A DNA stretch of 64,000 nt. Origin: an uncultured Vicinamibacteraceae bacterium. Its GTDB lineage: Bacteria > Acidobacteriota > Vicinamibacteria > Vicinamibacterales > UBA8438. A program made the translations under genes and the position numbers. The DNA is taken from contig CAZPZZ010000002.1 of the NCBI GenBank assembly GCA_964591245.1, positions 2,896 to 66,895 of the forward strand, in the 5' to 3' direction. The notes under the pieces are model-generated. The model did not search any database. It worked only from the letters and a program-made list of their open reading frames with translations, and had not been told where the DNA came from. Positions 8,937-38,835 of this stretch are shown here, piece after piece. Each line of letters opens with the position of its first letter. The first letter of the stretch is position 1.

Positions 8937-10862
8937 CTACGTTGTCGCCTGAGCAAGGGCGGCTAGATCGATGCTAATGGTGATGCGGGCCTTGGCGTTC
9001 TCCATGTAGGCAGAGAAGAATTGGCTCTGGCGTTCGGCCACGAGTTCCTGGTGGAGTGACTCACGAGTTGTCTCGAAGTCCTCGTCGTCAGCTTCCTGCC
9101 GTTCGTGCACGTGGAGGATGACGGCGGAGTTCCCGGTCAGTACCGGGTCGCTGGTTTCACCGACGTTCATGGAAAAGGCCATTGCCTCTACATCGGCGTT
9201 CAGTCCCACCCCGGGGACGGCTGCACCGCGCGCAATGAGGTCGCTGCTGTTGACGATCAGTTCCTCACCTTCAGCGGCAGCCGTAAAGTCGTCTGCGTCC
9301 TGGAGCGTCGTGGCGATCTCGTTCGCTCGTTCCTGGGCGGTCACGAATGCCTTGCGCCGAATCACATCGTCGCGCACGCGAGCCTCGACCTCTTCCAATG
9401 GAGGCACGTATGGATCCTGGATGCCAGTGATGGTCAGAAAGGCCGGGCCAGACTGGGTTTCGATGGGGCCGGCGACTTCACCTTCCTCGAGTTGAAATGC
9501 TTGCGAGCTGATCTGTGGCGAAAAACCCAGACCGAGAATCGGCTCACCGGGTCCCGCGAAACCACTTTCCTGTGGCTCAAGACCACGCCGACGGGCTGCC
9601 GTATCGAGTTCGGCCGCCTCGGTGACCTCAGCCGCCATGGCCTGAGCCAGAGCTGAGGCCCTGGCTTCGGCACGTTCTTGTTTCAACAGATCAACGATCG
9701 TGCCGCGCACCTCGTCAATCGCCTGGATTGCCCCGCCGCTTTTTTCGGTGGCTTTGATGATGTGCACTCCGAACATGCTGGTTACCGGATCGCTGATTTC
9801 ATCTTGCTCTAGCTCGAAGGCGGCCCCTTCGAACTCCGGTACCATCTGGCCTCGAGCGATCAGTCCAAGATCGCCGCCAACTTCTTTGGTCGTGTCATCC
9901 TCGGAGTGCTGCTGGGCGAGTTCGGCGAAGTCCGCGCCGGCTCGAGCTTCGGCGATAATCGATTCAGCTCGCGCCTGAATGTCTTCCGCGTTCTCCTCGT
10001 CAGCACGTAGCAAGATGTGACTCGCCCGGAGTGTGACTGGTTCCGAGTATCGGTCGAGATTACTGTCGTAGTATCCCTGCACGTCCGCGTCGCTGGGTGC
10101 GAAGGACTCCTTGAGTTCGGGGATGTCGATGAGGACGAATCGTAGGCGCCGCTTTTCCGGCACGAGGTAATCGTTGGCGTTTTGCTCGTACAGAGCCGAC
10201 ACGTCCTCGTCGGTAGCCTCGACGCCTTCCCGAAAGTCGTCGGCGCGAAACGATATCGCACTCATGCGGACGCGTTCGTTGCGGCGGATATGCTCTTGTT
10301 TGACGTCTTCATCGGTCACGGTGATCCAGTCCGTCACTGCGGTCTGGAGGCGTTGGAGCATGAGAGACCGGCGTACGTCTTCTTCGAATTGACCGGGGGC
10401 GATCGGCGGTTGTTGACTTCGGAGGACCTGGAGATAGGCCGCTTCCCCGATGAATTGTCCGTTCTGCTGGAATGGCGCCATCGTGACGATGCTTTCCCGT
10501 ACTTCCGCATCGGTAACGGTCACGCCGACGCGTTGGGCTTCCTGTAAGGCCGCGTATTCGTCGATGGTCTGTTGGAGCAGTTGCCGGTCGATGCCCATCG
10601 AGCGAAGGATCTCTGGGGTGATCTGGCCACCAGACTGCGCCTGATAACTTTGAAGCTGCCGGAGATAGACCTGGCGAAATTCCCCGACCGTGATTTCTTC
10701 GTCGCCAACCTGGGCAAGTACGTCGGTCAGGGCCCCAACCGGCGTATTGGGCACTGGTTGGACGAACGATGGCACGTAGAGAAAGACGAAGGCCAAACAG
10801 ACCAGAAATAGACTCCACTTGAGCCAACCCTTGTGCCGCCGCATGCTATCCAGCATCGTCAT
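8937..10862 (-). CDS. Periplasmic chaperone/peptidyl-prolyl isomerase, PpiD-like (SurA-N domain plus parvulin domain)
   Basis: N-terminal anchor MLDSMRRHKGWLKWSLFLVCLAFVFLYVP is typical of PpiD. A central parvulin PPIase segment is present: LRASHILLRAD...GGDLGLIARGQMVPEFEGAAFEL...GVHIIKAT. Confidence 0.8.
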   Translation of the reverse strand: MTMLDSMRRHKGWLKWSLFLVCLAFVFLYVPSFVQPVPNTPVGALTDVLAQVGDEEITVGEFRQVYLRQLQSYQAQSGGQITPEILRSMGIDRQLLQQTIDEYAALQEAQRVGVTVTDAEVRESIVTMAPFQQNGQFIGEAAYLQVLRSQQPPIAPGQFEEDVRRSLMLQRLQTAVTDWITVTDEDVKQEHIRRNERVRMSAISFRADDFREGVEATDEDVSALYEQNANDYLVPEKRRLRFVLIDIPELKESFAPSDADVQGYYDSNLDRYSEPVTLRASHILLRADEENAEDIQARAESIIAEARAGADFAELAQQHSEDDTTKEVGGDLGLIARGQMVPEFEGAAFELEQDEISDPVTSMFGVHIIKATEKSGGAIQAIDEVRGTIVDLLKQERAEARASALAQAMAAEVTEAAELDTAARRRGLEPQESGFAGPGEPILGLGFSPQISSQAFQLEEGEVAGPIETQSGPAFLTITGIQDPYVPPLEEVEARVRDDVIRRKAFVTAQERANEIATTLQDADDFTAAAEGEELIVNSSDLIARGAAVPGVGLNADVEAMAFSMNVGETSDPVLTGNSAVILHVHERQEADDEDFETTRESLHQELVAERQSQFFSAYMENAKARITISIDLAALAQATT

Positions 10863-11240
10863 CGTTCGTGTAGCTCCAGCAATTACGGTTTTCTGTTGTG
10901 GTTCGGAATGTCCCTGTGTTTACGTCCAGCGCCCTCTACCTTCAAGGACTAAGCCCTTCATTGTACGACAGGATATTCACCCCCAGCAAACGCGCCATAC
11001 GACTTTCTTGTTCAGGCAATCTCCGCTCGATGAGTTGGGACTCTGCGCGGGGAGATTACGGCTGTCGGATCCAGCTTATATGGTATATTTCCGAGCTACT
11101 GAGGGACTTAGGGGGAGGCTGATGGTACGGGCCAAGATCAGTTCTGTCTTTCGCCTGTCTGGCGTGTTGCACCGGCCGTACTGTCTCGCTCCTCCGGAAC
11201 AGGTTGACAGCGTTCGGTTCTGACTGCGTGGTTACCCGTT

Positions 11241-12686
11241 GTGCATGCCTCGAGGCGCATGTTACGCCGTATTGGGACGACGCTAGCTGTCTTTCATAGC
11301 GCTGATTCTGACGTCCAGTCCCACGTCGCACCGTTGCGACGTCTACCCGAGTACAGTGTCATTTGCCGCGTGCAGTCCCGTGCTTTTGACGACGAGGTTG
11401 GCGCTACGTTGCCCGGTTTTGTGCTGTGGGAGCTGGCGCCGGGGCGTCGCCCGAACTGGCGGCGGCTTCATGCGGTCGCCCAGGGTGCCCGCGTCGTGTC
11501 GTATTCCGCCGATACCACGGCTATGGTGATGGAGCGCTCACGACGGTTTGGGTTTAGCTCCCATTTGACGGCGCCCTTGCGACCGATCGAGGTCGCGCAC
11601 CAGGTGGCGATCGGCGCGCCGGGCGACCTTGCGATTCGTTGGCGTACTGCTCGTTCATCGCTGATACGGTTCCTGGGGCGGCTCGATACAGTGAATCAGC
11701 TGGTCCGTGATGCTGCAGAGAGGTTTGACCCTGTCGAGGTGGCCGAGGCGTTGGTCCATCGGGCTGCGGCCTGGCTGCCCGGGACGCGCTGGGCGATGGT
11801 TGCCCTTGACGATGCCGCGGCAGCGAGGGTGCTCGCAGGCTGGAGGCTCGCTGCCCCGCTCCATCCGGTGGCGTGTGCATTGGGGTTGCAGGCAATGAAA
11901 TCTCAGGCGCCACATGGCGTCGCTGATCTCAGTGATGATCGTCGCCATGTCGCAGGGCCTGCCGCGGCAGCGCTGGCCATTCCGTTGCGTTGCCGCGGGA
12001 GTGTCGTTGGTGCGCTGGTCGGCCTCGATGAGGCACCCTCGGCCAGGCGACCTGAGGTGTCTCGACGGTTGACGGAAGTCCTCGCGAAGGTGCTTGAGCC
12101 AGGTGCGCTGGCACTCGATAATGCGATCCGGCTCAGCCGTATGCAGGAACTGACGGTGACGGATGATCTCACCCAGTTGTTCAATGCGCGGTACCTCAAC
12201 GAAGTCATCCGGCGAGAAGGAAAGCGCGCGGCGCGCTCAGCGCTTCCACTTTCGGTTCTCTTTCTCGATTTAGACGGATTCAAGGACGTCAACGACAGCT
12301 ACGGGCATCTCAACGGCAGCCGTGCGTTAGCTGAGGTCGGGAAGCTGCTTGGTGATTGTGCGCGGGAAAGCGATACGGTCGCGCGTTACGGCGGCGATGA
12401 GTTCGTTGTCGTGTTGCCAGAGACTGATAGTCATGGGGCACTGGTGGTTGCCGAGCGGATCCGTCGGTGCATCAACGGATATGTGTTCCTGATTGATCAG
12501 GGTTGCCATGTGCGGCTCACGGTGTCCACGGGTATCGCCACACTTCCCGACAGTGTCAGGTTGGTCGATCGGTTGCTGGCCACCGCAGACGAAGCGATGT
12601 ATTGGATCAAGAACAATGGTAAGCACGGGGTCAGACTGGCCGCCGCGGCTGTTGGCTCTGTGATCAAGGAGGATTCCAGTCGTTGA
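11241..12686 (+). CDS. GAF domain-containing diguanylate cyclase (GGDEF) with RxxD inhibitory site
   Basis: C-terminal GGDEF domain: [12 protein letters not shown]...[17 protein letters not shown]...[22 protein letters not shown]. The GGDEF codons lie at 12389-12403. RESD sits 5 residues upstream, at the I-site position. A GAF-like segment precedes the domain. The N-terminal ~130 aa are unassigned and the start codon is uncertain. Confidence 0.85.
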
Positions 12687-30817: not shown

Positions 30818-31876
30818 TTGGCGTCGGGGATGAATGAAGCACGGATTACAGGGGATCAGGTGAAGGATATCGTTGTCGTTGGAGCGGGGCCGGCGGGGTT
30901 GTCGGCGGCGATTGCCGCGAAGAAGATGGGGCTCGGCTGCACGGTATTCGAGCGCGGGGCGGTGGTGAATTCCATTCTGCATTTTCCCGTCAATATGGGC
31001 TTCTTTACGACGCCTGAGCTACTGGAACTTGGTGGGCTCCCGTTCGTGACACCTTACGAGAAACCGACGAGAGACGAGGCATTACGGTATTACCGCCGTG
31101 TCGTCGATGCGTATGAACTGGATGTGCAGTTAGGGTGGGACGTCCGGGGCATCACCCGCGAGTCTGGACGCGACGGTGAGGGCTGCCTCGCCGTAGAGAC
31201 GTATGAGCCGCAGGTGGGGGCGAGTCGGTGTCTCGCCCGGGCGGTGGTCGTGGCCGTGGGCGCGTACGAGCGACCCAATCTGCTCGGTGTGCCAGGTGAG
31301 GACCTGGCCCACGTGTCGCATTACTATACGGAAGCACATCCTTATTACCGCAAACGGGTTGTTGTTGTCGGTGGCAAGAACTCAGCCGCTGAAACAGCAC
31401 TTGAGCTCTTTCGGGCGGGCGTTGATGTGACGCTTGTGCACCGGCATGCCGAGCTCGGCAGTGGAATCAAATACTGGGTTCGGCCGGATATTGAAAATCG
31501 TATCAAGGAAGGCTCGATCCCCGCGTTGTTTGAGACGCGGGTCGTGGAGATTCATCCCAGGGCGGTCATCGTCGAACGTGAGGGGAAACGATGGGAGTTA
31601 CCAGCCGACGGAGTATTTTTGTTGACCGGTTATCACCCTGACGTCGAAATGTTAGCGCGATTCGGGATCGCCGTGGATCCTGAGACCATGGTTCCGTCAC
31701 ACGCTCCAGAGACCTACGAGACGAATGTGCCCAACCTGTTTCTCGCGGGGCAGGTGATTTCGGGTATTCATAGTGGCCAGATCTTCATCGAGAATGGGCG
31801 ATTTCATGGTGAGATGGTCGTCAAGGAGATCGCGCGTCGTCAGGCCTCGAATAATCAGACAAGCGTGACCGCATAG
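30818..31876 (+). CDS. YpdA-family FAD/NAD(P)-dependent disulfide reductase (putative bacillithiol disulfide reductase type)
   Basis: DIVVVGAGPAGLSAAIAAKKMGL...ERGAVVNSILHFPVNMGFFTTPELLELGGLPF aligns by eye with the Bacillus YpdA N-terminus. A second Rossmann motif, VVVVGGKNSAAETALEL, is present. The track start is TTG 30818, and ATG 30830 is an alternative. Confidence 0.7.
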   Translation: MASGMNEARITGDQVKDIVVVGAGPAGLSAAIAAKKMGLGCTVFERGAVVNSILHFPVNMGFFTTPELLELGGLPFVTPYEKPTRDEALRYYRRVVDAYELDVQLGWDVRGITRESGRDGEGCLAVETYEPQVGASRCLARAVVVAVGAYERPNLLGVPGEDLAHVSHYYTEAHPYYRKRVVVVGGKNSAAETALELFRAGVDVTLVHRHAELGSGIKYWVRPDIENRIKEGSIPALFETRVVEIHPRAVIVEREGKRWELPADGVFLLTGYHPDVEMLARFGIAVDPETMVPSHAPETYETNVPNLFLAGQVISGIHSGQIFIENGRFHGEMVVKEIARRQASNNQTSVTA

Positions 31877-31897: not shown

Positions 31898-32515
31898 CTA
31901 TTGGAACCCGGTTGGGGGCTGATGTATGAGTGCGTGCATTTCGATCAGCTCGATGAGTGACTCGGAACGGCTGATGATGTCTTCGCGTTCAAGAAGGGCC
32001 TGCTTTTCTACCGGTTCGAAGTCCAGGTACTGGGCCAAGGTGTTCACCAGATCTTCGTCGCCCATGTCTCCAGGTACCGCGGCTCCTCCTGGCATGTCGA
32101 GACGGCCTGCGAGGAGGTCTTCGAGGTGGCGGCGCGCCTGCCGCGCGGCGCCACGAGTCGTGTCCGTGGAGGGCTCAGGCAGGGGCTGGATCTGCGCACA
32201 TCGATACGGGTGCCCGTCCTGCTCTGTGATAACCCGGAACCGCTGAATTCCGCGCAAGATGATGTTCGAGCGGCCATCTTCCAACTTTTCTGCATGGCTG
32301 ATGAGCCCGGCGCACCCCACCTCATAGATTGGCGGCGGCTCTTCGATGTCGTCACGTCCACTCTTCAGAAGGACGATGCCGATAAGTCGGTCTCCCTTCA
32401 GCGCGTCCGCGAGCATTTCCTGGTAACGCGGTTCGAAGATGTGGAGCGGCAAGAATACCGACGGGAACAGTACCACGTTCGGTAGCGGAAAGAGCGGAAT
32501 GATTGATGGAAGCAT
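31898..32515 (-). CDS. Stand-alone LON substrate-binding (Lon N-terminal) domain protein
   Basis: IPLFPLPNVVLFPSVFLPLHIFEPRYQEML and the following IGIVLL...GCAGLI... segments are the Lon-N/PUA-like fold. The 205-aa protein has no AAA or protease domain. Confidence 0.8.
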   Translation of the reverse strand: MLPSIIPLFPLPNVVLFPSVFLPLHIFEPRYQEMLADALKGDRLIGIVLLKSGRDDIEEPPPIYEVGCAGLISHAEKLEDGRSNIILRGIQRFRVITEQDGHPYRCAQIQPLPEPSTDTTRGAARQARRHLEDLLAGRLDMPGGAAVPGDMGDEDLVNTLAQYLDFEPVEKQALLEREDIISRSESLIELIEMHALIHQPPTGFQ

Positions 32516-32528
32516 GCGCCGGGAAAAA

Positions 32529-33803
32529 TCAATGAATGGTTCGAGTTTTCTTGTCGAGAAAATCCATCAGGACGTAGCGGCCTAACGTGTGGGGCGTCGT
32601 GAAATACGCCTTTCCATGGCAGATCGAGGTTACACGTTTGACGAAGCTCACGAGGTCGTAGTCGCGGGCGAGCATGAAGGTATTGATGAGGATCCCGGCC
32701 TTTCGGCAGTTGGATACTTCAGCAAAGGTTTCTGCGATCACCCACGGGTCGAGTCCGAACGCGTTTCGATAGATCTGGCCATCGGACCGTGTGAGTGCAG
32801 ACGGTTTGCCGTCAGTGATCATGACGATCTGCCGCATTTCTCTCGGTTGTCGCTCGAGTAGTCGTCTGGCCAACCGCAACCCTTCCCGGGTATTGGTGTA
32901 GTAGGGGCCCACTCGCGCGCGTGCGAGCTGGCGAAGCGGAATTTCTTCCGCTGAATCGTGAAAAAGGACAACCTTGAGTGTGTCGCCGGGATACTGATGA
33001 CGTATCAAGTTGGCCAGGGCCAGTGCGACCCGTTTCGCGGGCGTGAAGCGGTCTTCGCCGTAGAGAATCATGCTGTGGCTGCAGTCGAGCATGAGCACCG
33101 TGGCGCAGGCACTTTGATACTCGCCTTGCGAGACCATCAAGTCCTCGTGTTCGACGTCAAGCCCGGGGCGGCCCACCGCATCTGGCCCGAGACGCTTGAC
33201 GGCATTTAGCACTGTGGCACTGGCGTCGAGGTTCAGCGTGTTTCCGAATTCATAGGCTTTCGGGGCGCCGCTGGTTTCCACGCCGGTGGCGACGTCTCTG
33301 GTGTCATGGCGCCCCAGTGTGCTGTGTCCGACTGAACCAAGTAGATCGCGTAGAGCTCGGTAGCCGAGGAAGTCGAGGCCTTTATCGGTGACCTCGAAGC
33401 GCATTGGTGGCCCATCGCGTTCTTCTGTTCCCTGTCCTTCCCGATGACGTTGTTCGGCCTCGAGGTCCGGATGGCGTGTGATGTAGCCGTGATCGGCCAT
33501 CTTTTCGATCAGTTGCTGGATCAATTGCTCGAGGGAGGATGGGCCATCCACGTCGGCCGGATCGCCAAGCAGCTGAGATACCGTGCTGTCCGGTAGGAGG
33601 CCGTCGTTCAGCAGTGCCTCGAGAATCGCATCATGCAGTGCTTGTTCGGATCGTTCGTTCGGGTTGTCGAACGCATCATCGGATTGGCCGGACGCGTTGC
33701 CGAATCCGCTGTCAAGCAGGAGCTGGGACAGCTTCGAGACGAGTTCTTCCAGGTCGATGCCGTCAAGGTCGTCACCCGTGTAGCGGGTGTAGCGGTATTT
33801 CAT
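32529..33803 (-). CDS. VWA domain-containing protein with intact MIDAS motif
   Basis: The C-terminal half carries [10 protein letters not shown] (DxSxS) and [11 protein letters not shown]. The N-terminus ([21 protein letters not shown]) resembles VWA partners of ChlI/MoxR-like ATPases. Confidence 0.8.
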
Positions 33804-33868
33804 GTGATTCGAACTCTTGATCGCAAATTGTTTGTTTCGTTCGAACGGTCAACAGCGCTCCAGAGCGA

Positions 33869-35407
33869 TTAGTTGTAGTACTTTTTCTTACCCGGTGGAA
33901 CTTGAATCTCCGTCTCGAAGAGTTGTTCCGCCGTCGGTGTAGTTCGCCGTACCCGTTTTTTCTTTGTGGCACGATATTGCCATTCGTCTGTCCGGCTGAT
34001 CTTCTTCTGGGCACAGAGCCCCTCGATGACGAATTCAATGGCCGAGGCCCGCGCCGAAGTCGGCGCTTCGGCGGCGATGCCCGCATGCGTTGAGAGCTCG
34101 TGCAGGCCCTGTACTTGCTCGGTTTGGGCGAGGAGTTCCTCCGAGGGGGTGCCGTCCCCCAGCGCGAGTGTGCCTCCAAGGTCGAACCATTCCACGATCT
34201 GGTCGGTGTCGACTTCGCCATACCATCCGTCGAAGACGTGACCGACGGCCGTGCGGACGACCTCCCGCGCTATGGTACCGGCGCCTTGGAGTTCTCCTTC
34301 ATATTCGAGTTCGAGTTTGCCCGTGATCGAGGGGAGCGCCGCATAAATATCTGCCGTTCGAACGACCGCCGGCGACTCACCGCTGATCAACGCGCGTCGT
34401 TCGGAATTGGAGACCGCATTCTCGAGACACGTGATCGGTAGCCGCTGGCTCACCCCCGAGCGTTTGTCAATCTTGGCGTGATCACGAGCGACGAACGCGA
34501 CCTCTTCGACGATTTCACGTATGTAGGAAGGAATTTGTGTCTCGTTTTGGCCTGTTGCTGCTGCACTCCGGTCGGTCCATGCTTCCTGGGTTGTGATGGC
34601 CAAACCTGCTTGCCGTGTTTGTGGATAATGAGTCTGAATTTCTGCGCCCATTCGGTCCTTGAGGGGGGTCACGATTTTGCCGCGCGCAGTGTAGTCCTCG
34701 GGGTTGGCCGTGAACGCCATGACCACGTCGAGGGGCAGGCGGATTGGATAGCCTTTAATCTGTACATCACCCTCTTGGAGGATGTTGAAAAGGCCTACCT
34801 GGATCTTGCCGGCGAGATCCGGAAGTTCGTTCACGGCAAAGATGCTGCGGTTGGCCCTGGGGAGCAGGCCATAGTGGATCGTGAGTTCATCAGAGAGCTC
34901 GAGCCCAGCGCGAGCGGCTTTTATGGGATCCACGTCGCCGATCATGTCAGCGATCGTCACATCGGGCGTTGCCAGCTTTTCGATCAACCGGCGTTCACGA
35001 GGAAGCCAAGCGACAGGCATGTCGTCGCCTTCGTCCTCTGCACGTGCGCGACAGGCGCTGCACAGCGGGGCCAGTGGGTCATCGTTGATTTGACATCCAG
35101 GCACAACCGGGATGACTTCATCAAGCAGGGTGGTCAGGCCTCGTAGGATGCGCGTCTTGGCCTGACCACGGAGGCCCAGCAGGACGAAGTTGTGCTGAGC
35201 GAGCACCGCATTGGCGACCTGGGGAATGACCGTGTCGTCGTAGCCGACGATTCCTGGGAATAACGGTTGATGCTGGCTGAGCCTGTGCATCAAGTTTTCC
35301 CGCATTTCGAGTTTGACACTTCGGTGGGGGATTTGCCCCGCCTCAATGGCCTGACGAAGTTCTCCAACGCGTTCCGGTCGTGACATGGTTTCAATAGTAA
35401 GGTCCAC
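33869..35407 (-). CDS. ChlI/BchI-MCM-like AAA+ ATPase (often labelled Mg-chelatase-like or sigma54-interaction-domain protein)
   Basis: The P-loop GLRGQAKT is encoded at 35153-35176. The Walker-B-like IFAVNE is encoded at 34826-34843. The ChlI-like core FNILQEGDVQIKGYPIRLPLDVVMAFTANPED is present. The C-terminal ~200 aa are unassigned. Confidence 0.75.
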   Translation of the reverse strand: MDLTIETMSRPERVGELRQAIEAGQIPHRSVKLEMRENLMHRLSQHQPLFPGIVGYDDTVIPQVANAVLAQHNFVLLGLRGQAKTRILRGLTTLLDEVIPVVPGCQINDDPLAPLCSACRARAEDEGDDMPVAWLPRERRLIEKLATPDVTIADMIGDVDPIKAARAGLELSDELTIHYGLLPRANRSIFAVNELPDLAGKIQVGLFNILQEGDVQIKGYPIRLPLDVVMAFTANPEDYTARGKIVTPLKDRMGAEIQTHYPQTRQAGLAITTQEAWTDRSAAATGQNETQIPSYIREIVEEVAFVARDHAKIDKRSGVSQRLPITCLENAVSNSERRALISGESPAVVRTADIYAALPSITGKLELEYEGELQGAGTIAREVVRTAVGHVFDGWYGEVDTDQIVEWFDLGGTLALGDGTPSEELLAQTEQVQGLHELSTHAGIAAEAPTSARASAIEFVIEGLCAQKKISRTDEWQYRATKKKRVRRTTPTAEQLFETEIQVPPGKKKYYN

Positions 35408-35437
35408 GCGAACAACGGCGATAGCTATTTCGTGTGT

Positions 35438-37159
35438 TCACGGATTCGGTCTGTTCAGGGAATCAATCGAAACGAAGCGGGGTTGGATGTCGATGGGAAT
35501 GTGATCCAGCCGATTCAGCACCTGCTGTACTTCTGGACGAATGACGCCGCGGGTTTCCAGTAGCCGTTCGGCTGCTGCGATGTCACCGGTAGCCTGGATG
35601 GTCATGAGTTCGCTGGTCAAATTCCGTACCGCGTTGCGAATTCTCCCATGGTCGACACCGAACCGACCATCGCTATCGACGGTCACAGCCCCCGCGTCGA
35701 GAAAACTGTTGAGTTGAATGGCGACGCCTCGACCGTGTGCTTCATTGATGCCGAATCGGAGGGACCGAAAGGTAGATGCGAGAAATGTCGTGTAGATGCT
35801 GCGTTCTAGTCGTTGGTCGACGATACCCTGATCGAGAAGCTTGTGTAACGCCCAAAGGCCGGAGATGTCCGCTTTGGCTTCCTCGATGGTGCTGTGGGTC
35901 TCTTGCAGTTCCTGGCGCACAGTAGTTTCTTCGCCATTCACGGTGATGGTGCCAGGGCCAAGTCCGTGCATGAGTTCATGCATCAGTATGTGGGTGAAGA
36001 AGGCCTCGAATGAGACTTCTTCGCGTTCCGCGGGCCGAAGCGCCACCGCTGAAATCGGCGTAAGCACGCGTTCGAATTTCGCTTCTTGCATGTTCTTCAA
36101 CATGACTCGCTTGGAGCCTTTTTCTCGGACGACCCGTTCGTCGTTCGGAAGGTTGAAGGCTGCGGTCTGCACCCCGCTATTTGCATCTCCCGCGGTGAAG
36201 AGAACGTTGACGACGCGTATTGGGGCGAGGGACCCTAGGGCTGAATTACGGAAGGCAGGGGCGAGCGGGAGGCTGTCTTCAAGAGCCTGAAGGTGCGTTC
36301 CGAAGCGTTGGAGATTCGCCGTCTCGGTGTCGTCGCGTAGGGTTACGAATGCTTCGAAGGCGGCCTTGTAGTTGAACCACAGGTCTTCGTAAACCTCATA
36401 GGGACCGATCGTGAGCTCAATCGAGGCGTCGAGTTCCATCCACGCCACGTCGCTCTCGTAATAGTCATTGGAGAGAAATGCGTCGGCGCGTGTTTCGAGG
36501 TAGCGTTGGAGTGTTGGTTGAGTCGTTACTCGGGCGGCTGCCTGCAGGTGGTTGGCCGCCAGCGCGAGGGGGCCCTGATATTCGACGCTGTAGGGGACGC
36601 TGATGAGTCCGCGAATTGGGTCCCGTCTGATCGTGGTGAAGAATCCCGTAGCCGCGTCTTGAACGCTGGGTGGTAGCGTGTCGAACCAGGCTGCAACCTC
36701 TTCCCTGGTTGCATCCCCTGGATAGAAATTCCCCGCGTCTGGTTTCGGTGGCGCACCGGGTATGAAGGCGCGGTTATTCTCGATACGGGACCAAGGCCCC
36801 TTGTTGAGTAGAAAGAACCCCAGGCGAGCCTGACCCGCCGCGGTCGTGTCGCCAAGTAGGGTGAGGACCATCGACGGATTTCCCGCCCAGACCTGCTGGA
36901 GGAAAAGGCCGTCCATGACGCGGGCTGCCTCCACGATGTGTCGAAGCGCTTCGAGTTCGGAATCGTCAAGCGTCGAGAGATCTGCGCCTATGTCGACCGG
37001 CGCGAACAGTCGCGTCATCGTTGCTCCCTGGATGGTACCCTGGTAGCGTCCTGCTGCCGGCGCTCCGGCGGTGAGCATGAGCGCTGTGATCACGGTCAGA
37101 AGATAGGCGGCGGCGGCGTGGTCGGTTCGTTTTTGCTCGAGCATCTGACGGTCTCCCAC
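35438..37159 (-). CDS. Exported M49 (dipeptidyl-peptidase III)-like zinc metallopeptidase
   Basis: The hydrophobic N-terminus AAAAYLLTVITALMLTAGAPAAG looks like a signal peptide or anchor. The zinc motifs are HELMHGLGP and, downstream, EEAKADISG. These parallel the two DPP III motifs HExxGH and EExxAE. Confidence 0.65.
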   Translation of the reverse strand: MGDRQMLEQKRTDHAAAAYLLTVITALMLTAGAPAAGRYQGTIQGATMTRLFAPVDIGADLSTLDDSELEALRHIVEAARVMDGLFLQQVWAGNPSMVLTLLGDTTAAGQARLGFFLLNKGPWSRIENNRAFIPGAPPKPDAGNFYPGDATREEVAAWFDTLPPSVQDAATGFFTTIRRDPIRGLISVPYSVEYQGPLALAANHLQAAARVTTQPTLQRYLETRADAFLSNDYYESDVAWMELDASIELTIGPYEVYEDLWFNYKAAFEAFVTLRDDTETANLQRFGTHLQALEDSLPLAPAFRNSALGSLAPIRVVNVLFTAGDANSGVQTAAFNLPNDERVVREKGSKRVMLKNMQEAKFERVLTPISAVALRPAEREEVSFEAFFTHILMHELMHGLGPGTITVNGEETTVRQELQETHSTIEEAKADISGLWALHKLLDQGIVDQRLERSIYTTFLASTFRSLRFGINEAHGRGVAIQLNSFLDAGAVTVDSDGRFGVDHGRIRNAVRNLTSELMTIQATGDIAAAERLLETRGVIRPEVQQVLNRLDHIPIDIQPRFVSIDSLNRPNP

Positions 37160-37413: not shown

Positions 37414-38835
37414 ATGACGGACGCGACACAACTGGCGGTTATCGGAGGGGGACCTGGGGGATATGCGGCAGCGTTTCTGGCTGCGGATCTGGGGCTGAAG
37501 GTTGCGTTGATTGACGAGGCAGCCAACCCGGGTGGCGTCTGTTTGTATCGCGGATGCATGCCATCAAAAGCGCTGTTGCACGTTGCCAAGGTGTTGACTG
37601 AGGCGAGTGAGGCGGAGGCGTGGGGAATCCGCTTCGGTGACCCGTCTATTGATCTCGAACGCCTGCGAGCCTGGAAGGACGGAGTGGTGGGGCGTTTGAC
37701 CGGCGGTTTGGGACAACTCAGTACCCAGCGGGGCGTGACATATCTCCAGGGGCGAGCTGAACTTCTGGGGCCGCGGTCCGTTCGAGTGGTTGCCGGTGAT
37801 GGTACGGCGCGAGAGTTGACGTTCGAACACGGGATTCTCGCGACCGGATCACGACCGGCGACACCGGCGGCCTTGTCGCTTGAAAGTGACTGCGTCTGGG
37901 ACTCAACTCGTGCGCTCGACATGGCGTCGATTCCTGATTCATTGCTTATTGTGGGCGGTGGTTACATCGGGCTCGAACTAGGGTCCGTTTACGCTGCCTT
38001 GGGGACGGCGGTTACCGTTGTTGAGATGACGGCTGGCCTGCTGCCAGGAACAGATCGTGACCTCACGGCAGTAGTGGCGCGGCGACTCGAGGCGTCGTGT
38101 GAGGAAGTGCTCCTGGAGACGACGGTCGCGGGATTGGTGGACGAGGGCGACCGGATCAGGGTGACCCTAGAAGGAAAGGACGTGCCGCCGCGAGAGCAGT
38201 GTTTCGACCGTGTGTTGGTCGCCGTGGGACGGGTGCCGAATTCTGAAATTGCGGGGCTGGAACGAACCACCATCCAACGCGATGGGCGTGGCTTTGTGGT
38301 GGTCGATGGCCAGCGACGGACGGATGAACCAACACTCTTCGCAGTTGGAGATCTTGTTGGTGAGCCGATGTTGGCGCACAAGGCGAGTCATGAGGCCCGG
38401 ACGGCCGTGGAGGCGATTGTTGGCCGCCAGGCGGTGTTCGAACCGGCGGCGATACCGGCCGTGGTCTTCACTGACCCCGAGATTGCATGGTGCGGCCTTA
38501 CCGAGGCGCAGGCGTCAGCCGAGGGTCGCGCGGTTCAGGTGTGTCGTTTTCCCTGGGCGGCATCTGGCCGGGCCGTCACTGTAGACCGACCAGCGGGGCT
38601 GACGAAACTGATTGTGGATCGGGAGTCCGAAGAGATTCTCGGTGTCGGCATTGTCGGGAGCGGAGCCGGAGAGCTGATTGCGGAGGGAGTTGTGGCGATG
38701 GAAATGGGTGCTACGGCGTCGGATCTACGTCTCTGTATTCATCCGCATCCCACGTTGTCTGAGACGCTGATGGAGTCAGCCGAAGTCTTCTTTGGGCAGA
38801 GTACCCATGTGTATCGACCTAAGCGATCCCGCTAG
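37414..38835 (+). CDS. lpdA: Dihydrolipoyl dehydrogenase (E3)
   Basis: VIGGGPGGYAAAFLAADLG is the FAD-binding segment. GGVCLYRGCMPSKALL is the redox-active CxxxxC. IVGGGYIGLELGSVY is the NAD-binding segment. HPHPTLSE is the C-terminal interface His-Glu. Confidence 0.9.
   Translation: MTDATQLAVIGGGPGGYAAAFLAADLGLKVALIDEAANPGGVCLYRGCMPSKALLHVAKVLTEASEAEAWGIRFGDPSIDLERLRAWKDGVVGRLTGGLGQLSTQRGVTYLQGRAELLGPRSVRVVAGDGTARELTFEHGILATGSRPATPAALSLESDCVWDSTRALDMASIPDSLLIVGGGYIGLELGSVYAALGTAVTVVEMTAGLLPGTDRDLTAVVARRLEASCEEVLLETTVAGLVDEGDRIRVTLEGKDVPPREQCFDRVLVAVGRVPNSEIAGLERTTIQRDGRGFVVVDGQRRTDEPTLFAVGDLVGEPMLAHKASHEARTAVEAIVGRQAVFEPAAIPAVVFTDPEIAWCGLTEAQASAEGRAVQVCRFPWAASGRAVTVDRPAGLTKLIVDRESEEILGVGIVGSGAGELIAEGVVAMEMGATASDLRLCIHPHPTLSETLMESAEVFFGQSTHVYRPKRSR

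Follow-up and report, generated by a model that had tools for sequence, protein, structure and literature searches.

Introduction

Closest to the locus described here stand the two-component machines in which an AAA+ ATPase is paired with a VWA protein that carries a MIDAS motif, such as the chelatase pairs BchI/ChlI-BchD/ChlD and the MoxR-VWA systems RavA-ViaA, NorQ-NorD, CbbQ-CbbO and CoxD-CoxE. Another such pair, Rv0958/Rv0959, is conserved in Mycobacterium tuberculosis and in several major soil phyla and is unstudied; no functional study of this family was found in the literature searched. Here we describe an acidobacterial locus in which a pair of this type is joined by a gene for a stand-alone Lon N-terminal (Lon-N) domain. 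The locus lies in a stretch of 64,000 nucleotides (nt) of DNA from an uncultured Vicinamibacteraceae bacterium (assembly GCA_964591245.1, contig CAZPZZ010000002.1, positions 2,896 to 66,895 of the forward strand), and this whole stretch is called the window throughout. By its closest homologues, too, the DNA belongs to an acidobacterium of the order Vicinamibacterales.

In the Lon protease, the N-terminal domain is the surface that recognizes unfolded or degron-bearing proteins. Bacterial proteins that consist of this domain alone are common and the structure of at least one has been solved, and we know of no role assigned to them. What is on record for the Rv0958/Rv0959 family concerns mycobacterial orthologues of the ATPase. 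MSMEG_5512 of M. smegmatis was found not to associate with DNA (PMC7092591), and it is a recurrent interactor of ClpC1 that had been flagged in earlier ClpC1/ClpP2 knock-down and bacterial two-hybrid studies (PMC10433963), a weak hint at a connection of the pair with proteostasis. The M. marinum orthologue has a transposon insertion 49 nt upstream that was recovered in a screen for vitamin B12 resistance, without follow-up (PMC11237697).

The three-gene module and its conservation

The locus is a lineage-specific elaboration, by addition of a Lon-N gene, of a widespread and functionally uncharacterized AAA+/VWA pair, and the three genes form a conserved module. In the window they belong to a block of four minus-strand open reading frames (ORFs; positions 31898-37159) that are separated by gaps of 30, 65 and 13 nt. 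The coordinates, the gaps and the domain assignments of the four proteins had been proposed in a preliminary description made without database searches; the first two were confirmed, and profile searches agree with the third. From upstream to downstream, the genes are:

35438-37159, minus strand: dipeptidyl-peptidase III (DPP III, family M49), 573 amino acids (aa), with a hydrophobic, signal-like N-terminal extension
33869-35407, minus strand: ChlI-like AAA+ ATPase of the Rv0958 family, 512 aa as listed
32529-33803, minus strand: VWA/MIDAS protein of the Rv0959 family, 424 aa
31898-32515, minus strand: stand-alone Lon-N domain protein, 205 aa

The homologues of each ORF number in the thousands, the close relatives being 62-84% identical, so that all four are genes and not chance ORFs.

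The linkage of the Lon-N gene to the ATPase-VWA pair was examined in a sample of 80 genome loci seeded with the ATPase, all of them from Acidobacteriota. Neighbouring genes were compared by homology searches combined with a codon-position GC filter, used for antisense shadow ORFs in this GC-rich DNA, and loci in which the ATPase ends in YYN were classed as Vicinamibacteria-like (n = 44). The VWA gene is the next gene after the ATPase gene in 77 of the 80 loci. In 37 of the 44 Vicinamibacteria-like loci the Lon-N gene follows the VWA gene at a distance of at most 300 nt; in the remainder, the two genes are 3.2 kb apart (two loci), no Lon-N gene is present (three) or there is no room to tell (two). 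In many loci the stop codon of the VWA gene and the start codon of the Lon-N gene overlap or are a few nt apart. The 34 other acidobacterial loci present a different picture, with the Lon-N gene downstream in 4, absent in 23, unscorable in 1 and located directly upstream of the ATPase gene in 6, which belong to Acidobacteriaceae, Terriglobia and Acidiferrales.

A test in the reverse direction used a metagenome scan that was seeded with five Terriglobia-type Lon-N sequences alone and yielded 80 loci. The order Lon-N, ATPase, VWA is present in 64 of the 80, or 64 of the 68 that are informative; 12 end too soon, and only 4 lack the ATPase although 600 nt or more are available for it. The conserved same-strand genes of the Terriglobia-type loci are only these three, with a divergent SDR gene upstream, and the Lon-N, ATPase and VWA genes are also the only neighbours that the Vicinamibacteria-like and the Terriglobia loci have in common. 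The preliminary description, which saw a single genome, had asked whether the three genes stay adjacent elsewhere; they do so across many genomes, at the frequencies of 37 of 44 and 64 of 68 loci given above.

Synteny within a clade carries little weight, and the real argument for linkage is its recurrence across classes. The Vicinamibacteria-type and Terriglobia-type Lon-N proteins are 25-36% identical, and each of them is at least as close to alphaproteobacterial stand-alone Lon-N proteins. In a crude neighbour-joining tree (100 bootstraps, rooted on the N-domain of the Lon protease, few outgroups), the two acidobacterial types formed a clade in 0 of 100 bootstraps, the Vicinamibacteria type grouped with the alphaproteobacterial proteins in 65 of 100, and the Terriglobia type was placed with proteins of Pseudomonas and Tsukamurella. 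The presence of separate Lon-N types in two gene orders points to either two independent recruitments or a very ancient linkage followed by rearrangement, and either history argues for selection on co-location. By these sequence comparisons, Lon-N was probably drawn into the operon twice, from different Lon-N lineages.

Two irregular cases were seen in the ATPase-seeded sample. In one of the loci with a wide spacing (L007), a 731-aa ORF with an HNH endonuclease signature, which looks like a mobile element, is located at 9652-11847 between the VWA and Lon-N genes, and the gap in L008 has the same size and position. Furthermore, a contig labelled as a Bifidobacterium breve metagenome-assembled genome (MAG; L027, CALQBJ020000106.1) carries ATPase, VWA and Lon-N genes of the acidobacterial type, with an ATPase 63-64% identical to that of the window; this contig is almost certainly mis-binned.

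The Lon-N protein itself matches the LON_substr_bdg profile with E = 3e-38, and residues 6-191 of its 205 correspond to profile positions 2-198 of 200, so that the protein is a Lon-N domain and nothing else, as the preliminary description had it. It shares the full-length domain with the N-domain of the Lon protease and with stand-alone Lon-N proteins such as BPP1347, which PGAP names 'LON peptidase substrate-binding domain-containing protein'. Structures that match it are those of Lon N-domains (9jwa, 3ljc), of BPP1347 (1zbo) and of the cereblon Lon domain; among eukaryotic proteins, the Lon domains of cereblon and LONRF are the comparable ones. The window protein is 33-38% identical to annotated alphaproteobacterial stand-alone members. 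It differs from LonA in that it has neither an ATPase nor an S16 protease module (a Pfam scan found no S16 domain anywhere in the cluster), and the neighbouring AAA+ protein is ChlI-like and belongs to another clade than Lon. It differs from the stand-alone Lon-N proteins of proteobacteria and actinobacteria in that their genes lie in unrelated contexts, namely 3' of a gene for a TPR protein in Sphingomonadaceae, 3' of LrgAB in Pseudomonas and alone in Tsukamurella, and that of the window in an AAA+ operon.

TPR proteins were met twice in the neighbourhood of Lon-N genes. In two Sphingomonadaceae loci (L167, 2986-4561; L168, 3033-4540) the Lon-N gene is directly 3' of the gene for a TPR protein of about 300 aa, and in 13 Terriglobia loci a small TPR_19/TPR_20 protein is encoded about 1.9 kb upstream of Lon-N (L133, 3325-3633). 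The TPR protein may be a second recurrent partner of Lon-N.

Our favoured reading is that the ATPase, VWA and Lon-N genes form one cytoplasmic operon, in which Lon-N works with the pair; we consider that it has an even chance of being correct. Several observations weigh against it. The pair occurs without Lon-N in 23 of the 34 other acidobacterial loci, mostly Bryobacterales-like, and in all 12 of the loci sampled outside Acidobacteriota. Tsukamurella tyrosinosolvens possesses both the pair and a stand-alone Lon-N protein, unlinked and on different records. A marine acidobacterial lineage (L181-L183, 18 contigs) has retained a Lon-N protein that is 62% identical to that of the window and lacks DPP III, the ATPase and the VWA protein, which means that Lon-N is not obligately co-located with the pair. 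The flanks are kept in this lineage, with lipoyl synthase, UDG and Lpd on one side and an oxidoreductase, folE and a 3-hydroxyacyl-CoA dehydrogenase (3HCDH) on the other. The oxidoreductase gene, convergent with the Lon-N gene, is itself a well-conserved Lon-N neighbour within Vicinamibacterales (L001-L046). No fusion of Lon-N to the ATPase or to the VWA protein was seen among the proteins listed, the AlphaFold2 models of the ATPase and the VWA protein are poor (pLDDT 56-57), and the Lon-N phylogeny comes from neighbour joining with few outgroups.

Two further details of these neighbourhoods were recorded. No remnants of the DPP III, ATPase or VWA genes were detected in the AT-rich spacer of 675 nt of the marine lineage (L181-L183, 4327-5000), the state of which represents either a clean deletion or the condition before insertion. 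The oxidoreductase gene stays beside Lon-N in L181-L183, where the pair is missing, and it is not found in the Terriglobia loci.

The serious rival to a working partnership, and a real possibility in our view, is that Lon-N acts on its own in housekeeping or proteostasis and is carried as a mere passenger on the transcript or in a syntenic block. This would agree with its persistence between the same flanks where the pair is absent, with the quite different contexts of stand-alone Lon-N genes in Sphingomonadaceae, Pseudomonas and Tsukamurella, and with the fact that the pair is usually without Lon-N; moreover, each clade has other conserved neighbours, the oxidoreductase in Vicinamibacterales and the SDR protein in Terriglobia. 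A passenger would not be expected, however, to recur beside the same two genes in two classes, in opposite positions, with Lon-N proteins that do not group together and with all other neighbours different, and the overlap or close spacing of the VWA and Lon-N stop and start codons in many genomes also speaks against it. Independently of which reading is correct, Lon-N is a lineage-specific accessory of the pair in Acidobacteriota and not a core component. Should it be no more than a passenger, all that is left is the correct annotation of one member of a known and unexplained gene pair.

The ATPase-VWA pair and its relatives

The ATPase and the VWA protein are, judged from their sequences, acidobacterial members of the conserved and uncharacterized Rv0958/Rv0959 family. 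Proteins of Thermomicrobium roseum, Tsukamurella, Nocardia and Nonomuraea align with 84-91% of the length of the ATPase at 41-47% identity. A VWA gene with a product of 660-700 aa is located directly 3' of the ATPase gene in the Thermomicrobium and Tsukamurella records, from which alone this adjacency was read; the Nocardia and Nonomuraea stretches are unannotated. The Tsukamurella pair lies 3' of purN-purH, which we take to be the position of Rv0958/Rv0959 in M. tuberculosis. A Planctomycetota contig, a MAG labelled 'Deltaproteobacteria' and other lineages contain the pair as well; a few divergent lineages have the VWA gene displaced, or not next to the ATPase gene. An exhaustive search returned 698 clusters at 50% identity with E <= 1e-30, and from this small number it follows that the Rv0958-type ATPase family is compact and slowly evolving. 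Slow evolution of the pair is likewise indicated by the identity of 41-47% that is still found between acidobacterial and actinobacterial ATPases, taken together with these approximately 700 clusters.

The VWA protein matches the VWA_2 profile with E = 6.5e-9. PF27098 (Rv0959_3rd) and PF13519 (VWA_2) were found on P0241, which is identical to the window protein, and on all 120 homologues listed, and PF27532 (Mb0984_helical) is additionally present on longer relatives. The window protein is the short form; the long helical domain at the N-terminus of its actinobacterial relatives is missing. An intact DxSxS motif had been noted in the preliminary description, and it is present as DCSHS at aa 240-244, followed by TDG at aa 330; the MIDAS residues D240, S242, S244, T305 and D331 are invariant in 30 homologues. 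In an AlphaFold2 model (mean pLDDT 56.5, from an alignment of 30 sequences), only the VWA domain is confident.

The pair is thus no orphan, as it belongs to the database-defined Rv0958/Rv0959 family (PF27098). For the trio with Lon-N no describing paper was found, and this agrees with the statement of the preliminary description that no characterized system of such a composition was known.

The acidobacterial pair thus has the following points in common with the actinobacterial one (Rv0958/Rv0959, and MSMEG_5512 with its VWA neighbour in M. smegmatis): PF27098 and VWA_2 on the VWA protein, the sequence NE in the Walker B motif of the ATPase, and an ATPase 41-47% identical to actinobacterial proteins whose genes have such a VWA gene next to them. 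It differs in the length of the VWA protein (424 aa versus about 660-700 aa, without Mb0984_helical), in three features of the ATPase, i.e., a GQAK Walker A motif, a three-cysteine motif and a basic-aromatic tail, and in the Lon-N gene, which is not found beside the actinobacterial pair. Just upstream of the pair on the Thermomicrobium roseum megaplasmid there is a gene of about 300 aa annotated as 'type II secretion system protein E' (L081, 5069-5977).

The motifs of the ATPase and the VWA protein, all with checked translations except for the tail, are located as follows:

35153-35176, minus strand: Walker A motif of the ATPase, GLRGQAKT, in which Ala replaces the usual Gly before Lys
34826-34843, minus strand: Walker B motif of the ATPase, IFAVNE, in which Asn (Asn193) replaces the canonical Asp
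33872-33889, minus strand: C-terminal tail of the ATPase, KKKYYN, a basic run and an aromatic residue followed by Asn/Gln as the last residue
33072-33086, minus strand: MIDAS motif of the VWA protein, DCSHS

The unusual residues are features of the family. Among the family representatives, the Walker A motif has the form GQAK[ST] in 60 and GQGK[ST] in 11, and the Walker B sequence NE was found in 124 of 124 representatives in which the motif could be located, as well as in 84 of 84 loci. K84, E194, N235 (sensor 1) and R252 (the Arg finger, in a DR[FM] motif) are invariant among homologues. A Walker B motif of the type hhhhNE is unusual for an AAA+ protein that keeps all other catalytic residues.

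Pfam gave no match on the window ATPase. The closest solved structures are ChlI proteins (8osf, 6l8d, 1g8p), and the ChlI, ChlD and cobaltochelatase models of NCBIfam match with E values of 1e-8 to 1e-12. These scores amount to 34-47 bits, against curated cut-offs of 467-779 bits. Like BchI/ChlI-BchD/ChlD, to which its closest structures and profiles belong, the window pair consists of an AAA+ protein of the helix-2-insert kind and a MIDAS VWA protein; unlike ChlI, its ATPase has Asn in place of Asp in Walker B and carries an extra C-terminal domain of about 150 residues. An AlphaFold2 model built from an alignment of 30 sequences had a mean pLDDT of 57.2 and was confident only for residues of about 290-480, and a fold search with this model against the PDB gave weak matches to MoxR (top match 2r44), ChlI and MCM, none of which reached E <= 1e-3.

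These affinities raise the question whether the pair inserts metal into a tetrapyrrole, as a true magnesium (ChlI/ChlD-type) or cobalt (CobS/CobT-type) chelatase. The source annotations, 'magnesium chelatase subunit I', are in line with this, as are the best NCBIfam and PDB matches, which are to ChlI, ChlD and cobaltochelatase. We regard it as very unlikely, however. The scores are far below the cut-offs, no gene like ChlH or CobN was found within about 6-10 kb in any locus examined (neighbourhoods only), and the VWA partner has Rv0959-specific domains instead of the AAA-like N-terminal half of ChlD. In addition, NE is found in Walker B family-wide compared with DE in ChlI, and the family is present in non-photosynthetic lineages.

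A second alternative arises from the name that PGAP gives to the Thermomicrobium and Tsukamurella ATPases, 'sigma 54-interacting transcriptional regulator'; the products of the VWA genes next to them are named 'VWA domain-containing protein'. Weak Sigma54_activat matches in Pfam on relatives of the ATPase point in the same direction, namely to a sigma-54-type transcriptional activator. We give almost no credence to this possibility: the ATPase has no GAFTGA motif, no DNA-binding (helix-turn-helix), receiver or Sigma54_activat domain is detectable on it by Pfam, its better sequence matches are to ChlI, and the M. smegmatis orthologue was not seen to associate with DNA (PMC7092591). A known defence system is also unlikely, and PADLOC returned no match.

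Additional features of the ATPase are given for completeness. An insert after Walker A contains a three-cysteine motif, GC-x10-C-x2-C (window positions 35048-35101, aa 103-120), which may be a metal or redox site; 21 of 71 family representatives, spread over several lineages, have a CxxC, which is not found in Thermomicrobium, Tsukamurella and Planctomycetota. The tail residues K508, Y510, Y511 and N512 are invariant among close homologues, and RRQFN, KRQYQ and RKRSFN are variants in other Acidobacteriota (L001-L080). The tail resembles a docking tail; it does not track with the presence of Lon-N and is different outside the phylum. An interpretation of KKKYYN as a proteasome-docking motif of the HbYX type was dropped, because the residue before the aromatic one is often polar; the lack of a relation to Lon-N and the differing tail outside Acidobacteriota also speak against it. 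Neither the tail nor the short form of the VWA protein can serve as a correlate of Lon-N, as both are present in Bryobacterales-like loci without Lon-N.

Possible mode of action

By the precedents of BchI-BchD and of the MoxR-VWA systems, the ChlI-like ATPase would form an AAA+ ring, on which the VWA protein would dock, with its MIDAS holding on to an acidic residue, either in a client or in the ring itself. ATP binding or hydrolysis would then remodel the client protein or load a cofactor into it. The Walker A Lys, the Walker B Glu, the sensor 1 Asn, the Arg finger and the intact MIDAS are shared with AAA+/VWA two-component machines in general, and the replacement of Asp by Asn in Walker B throughout the family suggests that ATP is hydrolysed slowly, or as a switch, and not for high-throughput unfolding.

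Lon-N would be an accessory client-binding or regulatory subunit. By analogy with Lon biology, it would offer the Lon surface for unfolded or degron-bearing proteins and thereby select clients; it may select or present these clients or regulate the ring, in a module that encodes no protease. A physical partnership of Lon-N with the ATPase-VWA pair appears to us evenly poised between true and false. Gene context makes the specific role of a client receptor plausible, at a lower probability than that of the physical partnership. The most elaborate version would be that two Lon-N lineages were captured independently, that Lon-N is a dedicated client receptor or regulator, and that the trio is a protease-free, Lon-like device for substrate selection on a chelatase-type ring; taken as a whole, this is rather unlikely.

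The preliminary description had proposed a split, Lon-like device without an intrinsic protease. The lack of a protease stands, and the kinship with Lon does not; the likeness is an analogy only, as the ATPase is of the ChlI/MoxR/MCM kind. Compared with BchI/ChlI-BchD/ChlD, the window pair has no ChlH or CobN nearby, its VWA protein lacks the AAA-like half, and its scores are far below the cut-offs. With the MoxR-VWA systems it shares the logic of an ATPase ring and a VWA adaptor encoded side by side. It differs from them in that no MoxR profile (AAA_3, bpMoxR, AAA_lid_2) matches the window ATPase, with only faint AAA_5 matches on relatives, and in its Lon-N partner, none of these systems being reported with one in the literature searched.

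The finding is of value mainly because it supplies the Rv0958/Rv0959 family with a candidate partner and with a hypothesis that can be tested. Elsewhere, the only known role of Lon-N is to recognize proteins destined for Lon, and its recurrence as an operon partner suggests that the pair acts on proteins rather than on tetrapyrroles and names a candidate for binding. If the partnership is real, it would provide a working context for bacterial stand-alone Lon-N proteins, and if Lon-N is indeed a dedicated client receptor or regulator, it would offer a first lead to the function of this family, whose conservation extends over M. tuberculosis and many other phyla.

The peptidase gene, the transcription unit and the flanks of the locus

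The first gene of the block encodes a protein that matches the Peptidase_M49 profile (E = 4e-14) and aligns over 522 residues with dipeptidyl-peptidase III in PDB entry 5zum (E = 3e-224); entry 6eom is matched with E = 1.8e-146. The zinc motifs of DPP III are present as the pentapeptide HELMH at aa 394 and as EEAKAD at aa 426, and the one difference from these solved enzymes is a hydrophobic extension of about 46 residues at the N-terminus. The peptidase had been called M49-like; the M49 assignment is correct, and the full-length match to 5zum makes it a standard DPP III, for which the qualification can be dropped. The first approximately 46 residues include the hydrophobic stretch AAAAYLLTVITALMLTAGAPAAG, which is translated and is kept in close relatives, and this stretch is consistent with export of the protein.

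The DPP III gene abuts the ATPase gene only in the nearest relatives (L001-L005, L165/L166 and L184). It is 1-4 kb away in a few other loci and is present neither in the remaining neighbourhoods nor in any Terriglobia locus. Because of the signal-like N-terminus, the exopeptidase chemistry and an adjacency limited to the nearest relatives, we treat DPP III as a positional neighbour: it is probably an exported housekeeping peptidase outside the module. The suspicion that the peptidase might sit in another compartment and be linked by position only is supported by its N-terminus and by an adjacency confined to the closest relatives. In L165/L166 (6294-7991), DPP III is called as a product of 473 aa and a separate ORF of 80 aa, compared with the single ORF of 573 aa in the window; the split may reflect a frameshift, a genuine truncation or gene calling that differs.

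The arrangement of the block could nevertheless be read as a four-gene split protease, with Lon-N for the choice of substrates, the AAA+/VWA pair as the unfoldase and DPP III as the degrading enzyme. All four genes share one strand, the gaps between them are short and free of terminators, and DPP III is adjacent in L001-L005 and L184 as well. Such a protease is highly improbable. DPP III is an exopeptidase that acts on short peptides, and the window protein is a close homologue of solved enzymes; its signal-like N-terminus, which is conserved in relatives, points to another compartment; and it is not near the pair in most Vicinamibacterales loci or in any Terriglobia locus.

The block is flanked by two genes on the opposite strand:

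30818-31876, plus strand: pyridine-nucleotide-disulfide oxidoreductase (Pyr_redox_3-type, FAD), convergent with the Lon-N gene
37414-38835, plus strand: Lpd (dihydrolipoamide dehydrogenase), divergent from the DPP III gene

With plus-strand genes on both sides, the transcription unit can comprise four genes at most. Separate terminators or promoters between the genes had been named as evidence that would speak against a common transcript; no terminator-like site was found in any of the three intergenic gaps, and no sigma-70-like promoter was detected in the region. Searches at the locus for Rfam families and for a CIRCE heat-shock operator gave no match either.

An exact database look-up of the window ATPase as listed returned no record, probably owing to a different called start. 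Its homologues are 501-505 aa long, compared with 512 aa as listed, and these lengths indicate that the true start may be Met8 (position 35386), which would widen the gap between the DPP III and ATPase genes to 51 nt.

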